DNA of 9,104 nt. Origin: a virus (Monodnaviria; Loebvirae; Hofneiviricota; Faserviricetes; Tubulavirales). Location of the stretch: the IMG/VR virus record IMGVR_UViG_2667527591_000001. The stretch is one strand, 5' to 3'. Under the pieces are notes generated by a model. It made no database searches and had not been told where the DNA came from. It saw only the letters and a program-made list of their open reading frames with translations. Below, piece by piece: positions 7,123-7,458 of the stretch (its first letter is position 1; every line of letters begins with the position of its first letter). A program made the position numbers and the translations under genes.

Positions 7123-7145
7123 TAATCCCCCCAAATGCTTTACCT

Positions 7146-7224
7146 GCGTGCAATTGTGCAAACTTGCAAAAATAATACACAAAAAAACCAGATGCACAAG
7201 TGCAATTGTGCACAAATGCAATTT
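7146..7224. promoter_or_regulatory. Divergent promoter/operator region with 8-bp-spaced TGCA motifs
   Basis: Seven TGCA motifs at 7149, 7157, 7165 and 7193, 7201, 7209, 7217. Two direct repeats gtgcaattgtgca (7148-7160 and 7200-7212) lie 52 bp apart; palindrome ttgtgcacaa at 7206-7215. A candidate minus-strand promoter for rep has -35 TTGTGC (complement of 7194-7199) and -10 TATTAT (complement of 7172-7177). Confidence 0.5.
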
Positions 7225-7269
7225 TGCTATGTTGTATTAAACTAAGCCAAAAGAACAGGAGAACAAAAA

Positions 7270-7458
7270 ATGAGCAGGAAAAGTATTGGTATAAGCAACG
7301 AGAGATATCTGAGAATAGAAAGAGCAGCCGTAGATATCACAGCCAAAACAGGAAAAGTCACAAAATGGTCGGAGATCGTGAATTATCTGATAGATGAATA
7401 TTTAAACGATGCAAAACAAGATATGATTTCGAAAAATGAAATTACACAAAAAAAATAG
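7270..7458 (+). CDS. Small DNA-binding regulator, ribbon-helix-helix-like (candidate phage repressor)
   Basis: 62 aa, ATG with AGGAGA Shine-Dalgarno 7 nt upstream. The N-terminal segment KSIGISNERYLRIERAA fits a beta-strand followed by a helix, then a second helix. Divergent from rep, as with repressor genes in other inoviruses. Confidence 0.55.
   Translation: MSRKSIGISNERYLRIERAAVDITAKTGKVTKWSEIVNYLIDEYLNDAKQDMISKNEITQKK

Follow-up and report, generated by a model that had tools for sequence, protein, structure and literature searches.

A probable immunity and replication switch with 8-bp box arrays in a dif-integrated filamentous prophage of Escherichia coli

IMG/VR virus record IMGVR_UViG_2667527591_000001, a stretch of 9,104 nucleotides hereafter called the window, is a dif-integrated inovirus (Inoviridae, filamentous) prophage of Escherichia coli, in which the replication gene rep and a small gene encoding a protein of 62 amino acids (aa) diverge from a short intergenic region filled with regularly spaced TGCA tetramers. 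Which protein reads these tetramers, and what follows from their occupation? An initial annotation of the locus had proposed a divergent switch controlling lysogeny and replication, with operators overlapping the candidate rep promoter. The present analysis supports that proposal, on the evidence of arrays that recur throughout the family of the small protein, of the joint exchange of regulator and boxes as a cassette, of the three Rep families that family members face, of homology to an environmental RstR of CTXphi, and of a leftward promoter candidate found between the two rows of boxes here and in most of the other loci scanned. In our judgement, the region is likely to be an immunity and replication switch, in which an RstR-like repressor, the 62-aa protein, coats arrays of tetramer boxes lying over the promoters of rep and of its own gene.

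Two rows of 8-bp boxes between rep and a divergent small gene

As the initial annotation had described, rep lies on the minus strand and the 62-aa open reading frame (ORF) on the plus strand. The rep gene starts at GTG 7122 in the annotation of its RefSeq relatives, and homology between prophages ends at the same point; these two observations favour this start over TTG 7221, the start in a mechanical list of ORFs. The intergenic region therefore extends from 7123 to 7269. Its seven TGCA tetramers start at 7149, 7157 and 7165 and at 7193, 7201, 7209 and 7217, i.e., in two clusters with exact 8-base-pair (bp) steps inside each cluster, just as first reported, and with 28 bp between them. The second cluster goes on in phase as two degenerate boxes, TGCT at 7225 and TGTA at 7233, the latter being TGCA in relatives; the rows are therefore made of 3 and of 4+2 units with the consensus nnTGCA(A/C)(A/T). 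A period-16 array at 7193-7227 was also reported by TRF. The pair of 13-bp direct repeats noted initially is present as well (Table 1), and consists of two neighbouring box units that by chance are identical in both rows. Although the distance of 52 bp between the repeats was correctly given, the helical meaning attached to it (about five turns) is probably incidental, since 52 bp corresponds to 6.5 box units and the spacer between the rows measures 28 bp here vs. 29 bp in Photorhabdus.

TGCA is not generally enriched in this DNA, since the whole window holds 47 copies, below the shuffle mean of 53. Seven copies within 72 bp were found in none of 2,000 dinucleotide-preserving shuffles of the whole window, the maximum being 6, reached once. 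The 147-bp intergenic region contains 13 four-mer self-matches at lag 8 and 13 at lag 16, and 0-3 at all other lags from 2 to 29; the lag-8 value was never reached in 20,000 dinucleotide shuffles of the region (mean 1.6, maximum 12) and the lag-16 value was reached in 2 of them. When six TGCA-type sequences are aligned, the core positions are kept while the bases between cores drift, and in array 1 the core TGTGCA is invariant among the six TGCA-type relatives while its flanking bases vary. The rows thus display the properties of ParG- or MetJ-type arrays, namely at least two adjacent 8-bp units with a conserved core and a variable A/T-rich spacer.

Because TGCA is palindromic, the same rows can also be read as inverted repeats (20-nucleotide arms, 85% complementary), and a terminator scan flags 7213-7192 on the minus strand, as would befit a structure of single-stranded DNA or RNA (a minus-strand origin, a packaging signal or a terminator hairpin) rather than duplex sites for a protein. 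However, folding of 7123-7269 as single-stranded DNA is unremarkable on both strands (z -1.15 and -0.59) compared with the attP hairpin of the same prophage (z -8.6), the whole window has no match in Rfam, and the CATG, GTTAAA and TATTCA box types are direct repeats with little self-complementarity. A structural role for the repeats consequently retains hardly any probability.

The comparison was extended to the window and 25 further loci encoding members of the same protein family, taken from E. coli genomes, GTDB genomes (Photorhabdus, Providencia, Haemophilus, Actinobacillus), phage records and IMG/VR, with 170 bp examined upstream of the gene in each. Summed over the 26 loci, four-mer self-matches number 160 at lag 8, 112 at lag 16 and 51 at lag 24, and 18-47 at the remaining lags, except for lag 1 (79, from homopolymer runs); four control windows from the same loci gave 20-32 at lag 8 and lack the periodicity. 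Among 17 distinct types, the sums are 100 at lag 8, 83 at lag 16 and 10-37 at other lags; in 12 of these types the lag with most self-matches is a multiple of 8. The 8-bp-periodic box array is a family-wide feature and its core is type-specific: TGCA/TGTA in the window and its 77-98% relatives, GTTAA(C) in E. coli EC12 and AST205, CATG in E. coli TD225-C4, CTCAC/GTGAG in Pasteurellaceae, GCATGC in the CTXphi env-type and two IMG/VR types, and TATTCA, ATAAA, TTATAA and GTTAAC in other types. The layout is also kept across loci, one row lying ~100-135 bp and the second ~50-85 bp before the ATG. Two loci depart from this grammar: coliphage If1 lacks an array, and the spacing in the CTXphi env type is less regular (7/8/15 bp). 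The divergent arrangement of regulator and initiator around an intergenic target recurs in 13 other loci, and the initiators that family members face belong to three families, Phage_GPA, Rep_trans (RstA-type) and Phage_CRI/G2P.

Two side observations concern the neighbourhood of the arrays in relatives. The If1 genome (NC_001954, L015) carries an intact unannotated family member at 1474-1677 (63-67 aa, 41% identical) without a box array upstream; beside it lies an IS200/IS605-like tnpA-type ORF (653-1408; ...LWSRSYFAGSCGGAPLEVVRQYI...), and the N-terminus of If1 ORF348 looks TnpB-like. A small gene, absent from the window, is found between the arrays and rep in L012 (1716-1964), L004 (1034-1228), L025 (2146-2343) and L020 (2170-2382); it encodes 65-82 aa starting with MQI(V/I)Y(F/Y)DY..., and its 82-aa L012 copy, the sole copy scanned, has no Pfam match.

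Exchange of regulator and boxes among E. coli prophages

Prophages of E. coli that share rep separate the boxes from the replication protein. AST205 (L003) encodes a Rep identical to that of the window at 660 of 666 positions, next to an unannotated regulator only 53% identical and boxes of the GTTAAC type, and in TD225-C4 a regulator 47% identical is accompanied by CATG boxes. The DNA of the rep end (window 6500-7121) is 93.6-98.9% identical in L003, L009 and L012, and nucleotide homology to prophages of other types stops at 7121 and resumes at 7533 or 7542; the exchangeable cassette is therefore 7122-7532. Through swaps of such a cassette, ~0.4-0.9 kb in length, the dif prophages of E. coli appear to form at least three immunity types. 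Because a 99%-identical Rep carries different regulator/box cassettes, the boxes belong to the regulator and not to Rep, and the TGCA boxes are very probably the binding sites of the 62-aa protein.

Short repeated motifs beside rep are typical of replicon origins, and the arrays do abut the rep start codon, which could point to iterons or origin sites bound by the GpA-type Rep itself, either for replication or for Rep autoregulation. Such repeats would be expected to co-vary with Rep. Instead, one Rep occurs with three box types, standing beside GTTAAC arrays in AST205 and EC12 and CATG arrays in TD225-C4, and the same grammar accompanies the small protein beside Rep_trans and Phage_CRI/G2P initiators. 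Moreover, in strains AF34 and E400634 the same rep is preceded by an IS110-family gene, and arrays are absent there. Binding of the arrays by Rep is thus scarcely credible as their explanation.

Binding by a host factor has a precedent in YpfPhi, whose rep gene, YPO2274, is bound by RovA at its promoter region, with repression of the phage genes (PMC4266046). Since the region is A/T-rich, a SlyA/RovA-type or nucleoid protein might likewise occupy the arrays, or these could be functionless low-complexity DNA, the 62-aa protein acting elsewhere. With a host factor, however, there would be no need for a different core beside each regulator type within a single host species. Core positions are kept while spacers drift, and control regions lack the periodicity. 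Both possibilities are considered highly improbable, and binding by the 62-aa protein is retained. Co-regulation by LexA, as in CTXphi, was considered separately and rejected, as the intergenic region contains no CTG-N10-CAG.

Several observations were made on the contents and borders of the cassette. In AST205, it spans 3223-4074 and has three small genes: an unannotated family member with GTTAAC arrays (3338-3520), a 70-aa family member resembling the CTXphi env-type with no array upstream (3592-3804), and a 62-aa product (3861-4049) with the N-terminus MPTKHINDV, close to the primer-derived start of RstR-calc, MATKHIKD. Such a cassette may represent orphan repressors stacked against heteroimmune phages. 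In the 86%-identical TGCA-type prophage of strain UTME-13 (L002), the regulator is directly followed by a gene annotated as a 'TolA C-terminal domain-containing protein' (3629-3994), a candidate superinfection-exclusion decoy for pIII. In AF34 and E400634 (L010, L011), a gene for an IS110-family 'RNA-guided transposase' (2029-2994) directly precedes rep in place of the regulator cassette; rep is 99% identical over 620 bp, and the element adjoins hcxB, not hipA/dif. It may be an alternative integration module without an RstR-like regulator. Just beyond the cassette of the window lies a 56-aa hydrophobic ORF (7535-7705, probable start ATG 7550), 99% conserved in other immunity types, and a small hairpin, ATTGCTAAAAAGCAAT (7535-7550), coincides with the cassette border.

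The 62-aa protein and its RstR-like family

Compared with the 86%-identical UTME-13 copy, the 62-aa ORF shows 15 synonymous and 1 non-synonymous codon differences, and a third-position bias of the differences is seen in four comparisons, which indicates a real coding gene under purifying selection. The product matches PHROG 2503 ('unknown function', 1e-28) and has no match in Pfam, including its helix-turn-helix families, or in NCBIfam, where neither single family members nor whole alignments give anything at threshold. A profile search of 1.8 billion representatives retrieved 75 family clusters (50% identity), nearly all of 55-90 aa. The family is distributed over Enterobacterales, Pasteurellaceae, Vibrio and uncultured inoviruses. 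Against phage genomes, tblastn aligned the protein at 43-45% identity (E 4e-8) with two groups of genes, those of CTXphi IB1346 and pre-CTX 17449 annotated 'rstR: environmental RstR, cryptic phage CTXphi transcriptional repressor' and the 'RstR-like putative transcriptional regulator' genes of the Vibrio anguillarum phages VAI1/VAI2; it also matched an ORF that lies unannotated within the 'major intergenic region' of coliphage If1. The top match in BFVD is RstR C9E7D4. The rstR-6 allele (192 bp) has no record in the phage collection searched. Its primer-derived termini, MKKKYTSLRV... and ...TDLKR, resemble those of family member P0063 (MTKKYTSMRI...) and of the env RstR C-terminus (...TGLKR), and on the comparison of these termini rstR-6 is probably a member of the family.

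The initial annotation had likened the protein to ribbon-helix-helix (RHH) regulators, a comparison with which the predicted model and the nearest sequence relative are compatible, although the similarity stays below threshold. The AF2 monomer (mean pLDDT 80.6) consists of a coil (1-9) and two helices (10-27 and 33-61), which is compatible with an RHH monomer lacking its partner, the N-terminal segment not being a strand; in the family this segment alternates polar and hydrophobic residues (e.g., T-T-V-R-I, S-I-G-I-S). ParG (PF09274) is the Pfam family matched by most members (7/64, best E 0.019, below the cut-off), and the best matches of a PDB profile search, over the full length or helix B, are TTHA0139 (E 0.065, full length) and ParG 1p94 (E 0.17). 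With hhalign, a 21-sequence ParG profile is aligned at 63% probability over 44 columns including the DNA-binding strand, and a single ParG sequence at 77% probability, in register from the strand through helix B; the match to the omega repressor sequence used is not significant (probability 0.5%). Structure searches were uninformative. In three members (P0086, P0096 and P0104), a single chain of 122-142 aa contains the regulator module twice in tandem, a natural duplication as expected for a fold that works as a dimer and reminiscent of TraY-type single-chain RHH dimers; the model of the tandem fusion P0096 has four helices and no ribbon. The 62-aa protein is, on these sequence and model comparisons, probably a ParG-like RHH protein.

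A simple residue-to-base code read from the putative strand positions 5/7/9 was tried and discarded, as S-G-N occurs with both TGCA/TGTA and TATAA; R7-N9 pairs with GCATGC in two types.

Promoter candidates, proposed mechanism and precedents

Promoter candidates were taken from a weight-matrix scan of the window and 10 other loci; a stricter consensus promoter scan made no call in the intergenic region. The top leftward site of the window has its predicted -10 element in the A-rich spacer between the arrays and a weak -35 hexamer in the first units of array 2 (Table 1). Seven of the 10 other loci likewise have, among their three highest-ranked leftward sites, one whose -10 falls between the arrays or borders array 1; this site takes first rank in four of the seven, namely in L002, in L013 (of the CTXphi env-type), in L018 and in L020, and second or third rank in the remaining three, L004, L006 and L009. 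For the regulator, the position of the candidate -10 reads TATAAT in Photorhabdus and TACAAT in Providencia and IMG/VR relatives. With the promoters so placed, array 2 would span both -35 elements and reach the regulator -10, and array 1 would cover roughly +1 to +20 of the rep leader.

We infer from these elements a mechanism in which the 62-aa protein, probably as a ParG-like RHH dimer, would bind one dimer per 8-bp unit, each unit consisting of the TGCA core and ~4 A/T-rich spacer bases, and in which dimers would coat both arrays cooperatively. Array 2 would cover the -35 regions of two back-to-back promoters, leftward P_rep and the rightward promoter of the regulator itself, and array 1 would follow immediately downstream of the P_rep -10, on the first part of the rep leader. 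With the arrays occupied, rep would be silenced together with the ssb, coat and assembly genes that run in the same direction, and the regulator would autoregulate its own gene through the same sites. The expected outcome is quiescence of the prophage, and a lysogen immune to phages with the same box type, not to heteroimmune relatives.

The small protein could also bind the arrays in another capacity, as an activator, a Cro-like lytic regulator, or a ParG-like centromere-binding protein aiding maintenance or segregation of the episomal replicative form, with the arrays as its centromere. ParG, the protein nearest to it in sequence even if the similarity is weak, binds a centromere and also acts as a repressor (PMC3130281), and an activating or partitioning role keeps some probability because ParG is itself dual-function; furthermore, many Y. 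pestis lineages keep YpfPhi as an unstable episome (PMC4266046). On the other hand, no gene for a ParA/ParF-type partner occurs in the window, the small gene is placed and oriented relative to rep as rstR is to rstA, the CTXphi homologue is annotated as a repressor allele, and all rstR alleles tested repress their own ig-2 promoter (PMC11509585). The overlap of arrays with predicted promoter cores is also the geometry of repression. A role other than repression is therefore regarded as unlikely, and the immunity repressor is the reading kept below.

The rest of the window is consistent in its gene content with an inovirus: Pfam and PHROG matches identify Zot/pI, a pIV secretin, and pIII-like, pVIII-like and pVI-like proteins. 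The attachment is of the Xer/dif type. Rep matches Pfam Phage_GPA (8.2e-49) and PHROG 91, 'nicking at origin of replication' (1e-128). Near-identical copies of the prophage directly adjoin hipA in E. coli chromosomes (RefSeq), in one case as a tandem pair. Two dif-like sites, AGTGCGCACAATG...TTATGT and the partner ACATAA...CATTATGCGCACT, form an imperfect inverted pair around a GC-rich hairpin at 7709-7806; as single-stranded DNA this segment forms a hairpin of -36.8 kcal/mol (z -8.6), and it looks like a CTXphi-type single-stranded attP. A DNA similarity search with 6900-7800 found no match in the phage collection. Two repeated regions were noted elsewhere. Between the Zot/pI and secretin genes (1-1074), a 339-bp tandem repeat is present in 3.2 copies with 99% matches, at a G+C content of ~60% vs. 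~45% in the remaining phage; its copy number seems variable, because the interval of ~760 bp between secretin and Zot in strain 100416 (L001) is too short for 3.2 copies. In the linker region of the pIII-like gene, Gly/Ser-rich coding repeats of 39 and 78 bp (3171-3422) are of a kind whose copy number could vary among copies.

Table 1. Positions of the switch elements and of other genes in the window
Feature	Position	Strand	Remarks
Exchangeable immunity cassette	7122..7532		operators, regulator gene and 3' region of the gene
rep, P2 GpA-type rolling-circle replication endonuclease, 666 aa	5122..7122	-	GTG start 7122-7120
Candidate Shine-Dalgarno of rep, GGGGGG	7127..7132	-	4 nucleotides before GTG; read from the sequence
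Box array 1 (rep-proximal)	7147..7170		units CGTGCAAT, TGTGCAAA, CTTGCAAA; in predicted rep leader
13-bp direct repeat GTGCAATTGTGCA, copy 1	7148..7160	+	52 bp from copy 2
A-rich inter-array spacer	7171..7190		holds candidate rep -10
Candidate P_rep -10, TATTAT	7172..7177	-	top leftward weight-matrix site, in A-rich spacer
Box array 2 (regulator-proximal)	7191..7238		units GATGCACA, AGTGCAAT, TGTGCACA, AATGCAAT; degenerate TTTGCTAT, GTTGTATT
Candidate P_rep -35, TTGTGC	7194..7199	-	16-bp spacer; first units of array 2; weak hexamer, 3/6 matches
13-bp direct repeat GTGCAATTGTGCA, copy 2	7200..7212	+	52 bp from copy 1
Candidate regulator promoter	7216..7243	+	-35 ATGCAA 7216-7221 (last perfect box), 16-bp spacer, -10 TAAACT 7238-7243
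Alternative candidate regulator promoter		+	TTGTGC 7206-7211 with TATGTT 7228-7233
Shine-Dalgarno of regulator gene, AGGAG	7257..7261	+	8 nucleotides before ATG; GGAG or GAGG conserved in alignment
62-aa regulator gene, PHROG 2503 family	7270..7458	+	RstR-like, probable ribbon-helix-helix
Zot/pI morphogenesis protein	1088-2299	-	
pVI-, pIII- and pVIII-like proteins		-	
141-aa protein		-	sits where the gene for a single-stranded DNA-binding protein is expected
pIV-type secretin	7858-9066	-	

The closest biological precedent for the proposed switch is the RstR/ig-2/PrstA system of CTXphi, an integrative dif-targeting filamentous phage in which a small regulator is likewise divergent from the replication initiator, and the regulator and its intergenic target are swapped as an allele-specific cassette between near-identical phages (PMC11509585). 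Each of eight CTXphi rstR alleles represses its own ig-2/rstA promoter, and the short alleles of 180-204 bp (calc 180 bp, rstR-5 204 bp, rstR-6 192 bp; PMC11509585) have the size of the family described here. By contrast, the El Tor, classical, 232, ZJ and ZHJ alleles encode ~111-118 aa (333-354 bp; PMC11509585 Table S1). The Rep of the window also differs in being of the GpA type, not RstA/Rep_trans. Canonical long RstR alleles are helix-turn-helix proteins. A literature search found no published 8-bp box grammar for ig-2. YpfPhi of Yersinia pestis and CUS-1 of E. coli K1 are comparable in organisation, with a regulator divergent from rep, dif integration and variable ORFs by the attachment site; a review describes YPO2273 of YpfPhi as 'homologous to RstR', with a role that 'awaits experimental demonstration' (PMC4266046).

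The closest mechanistic precedent is ParG of plasmid TP228, whose OF operator consists of ACTC tetramer boxes with regular 4-bp AT-rich spacers and is occupied by one dimer per box to repress parFG; coating is cooperative, and the boxes function in either orientation (PMC3130281). The sum of 4-bp boxes and 4-bp spacers gives the same 8-bp period, and ParG is the best, sub-threshold, match of the 62-aa protein's family. Family members, however, fall under the Pfam ParG thresholds and have a helix A ~4-6 residues longer than that of ParG; a ParF partner and a long disordered N-terminal tail are both missing here, and the proposed function is phage immunity rather than plasmid partition. Similarly, MetJ places one dimer on each 8-bp metbox and needs at least two adjacent boxes (PMC3228920). 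The arrays of 3 and 4-6 units described here are also tandem 8-bp units, whereas MetJ is a chromosomal metabolic regulator and no sequence similarity to the 62-aa protein was detected. MetJ requires the co-repressor S-adenosylmethionine. RHH repressors do occur in phage immunity regions, as illustrated by Arc and Mnt of phage P22, which, unlike the putative regulator of the window, use single palindromic operators. The omega repressor of pSM19035 is an RHH dimer that binds arrays of short repeats, direct or inverted, upstream of promoters (PMC5016525), although its units are 7-bp heptads.

Immunity repressor/operator switches divergent from rep in integrative inoviruses are already known, as are RHH proteins that coat arrays of short repeats. 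In the literature searched, the family as a distinct short RstR-like class, the two-array 8-bp grammar and the three-type cassette system of E. coli dif prophages appear to be undescribed. A bolder extension, which we consider rather doubtful, is that PHROG 2503 proteins are a widespread new class of inovirus immunity repressors in which a few N-terminal ribbon residues read the 4-bp box, so that a 0.4-kb swap makes a new immunity group and orphan repressors are stacked; in a still more radical version, the arrays would double as a ParG-like centromere for an episomal replicative form.

Lysogeny control in filamentous prophages is largely uncharacterised outside CTXphi and Pf, although these elements, CTXphi, YpfPhi, CUS-1 and Pf among them, have effects on both virulence and biofilm behaviour. 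The operator grammar described here, two arrays of 8-bp units with a type-specific 4-bp core, is independent of the Rep family of the phage. It could let immunity groups be predicted from sequence and help annotate a gene that RefSeq misses, as in AST205 and phage If1, where it is unannotated. If binding is confirmed, the family would also provide a set of small orthogonal repressor/operator pairs for synthetic biology.

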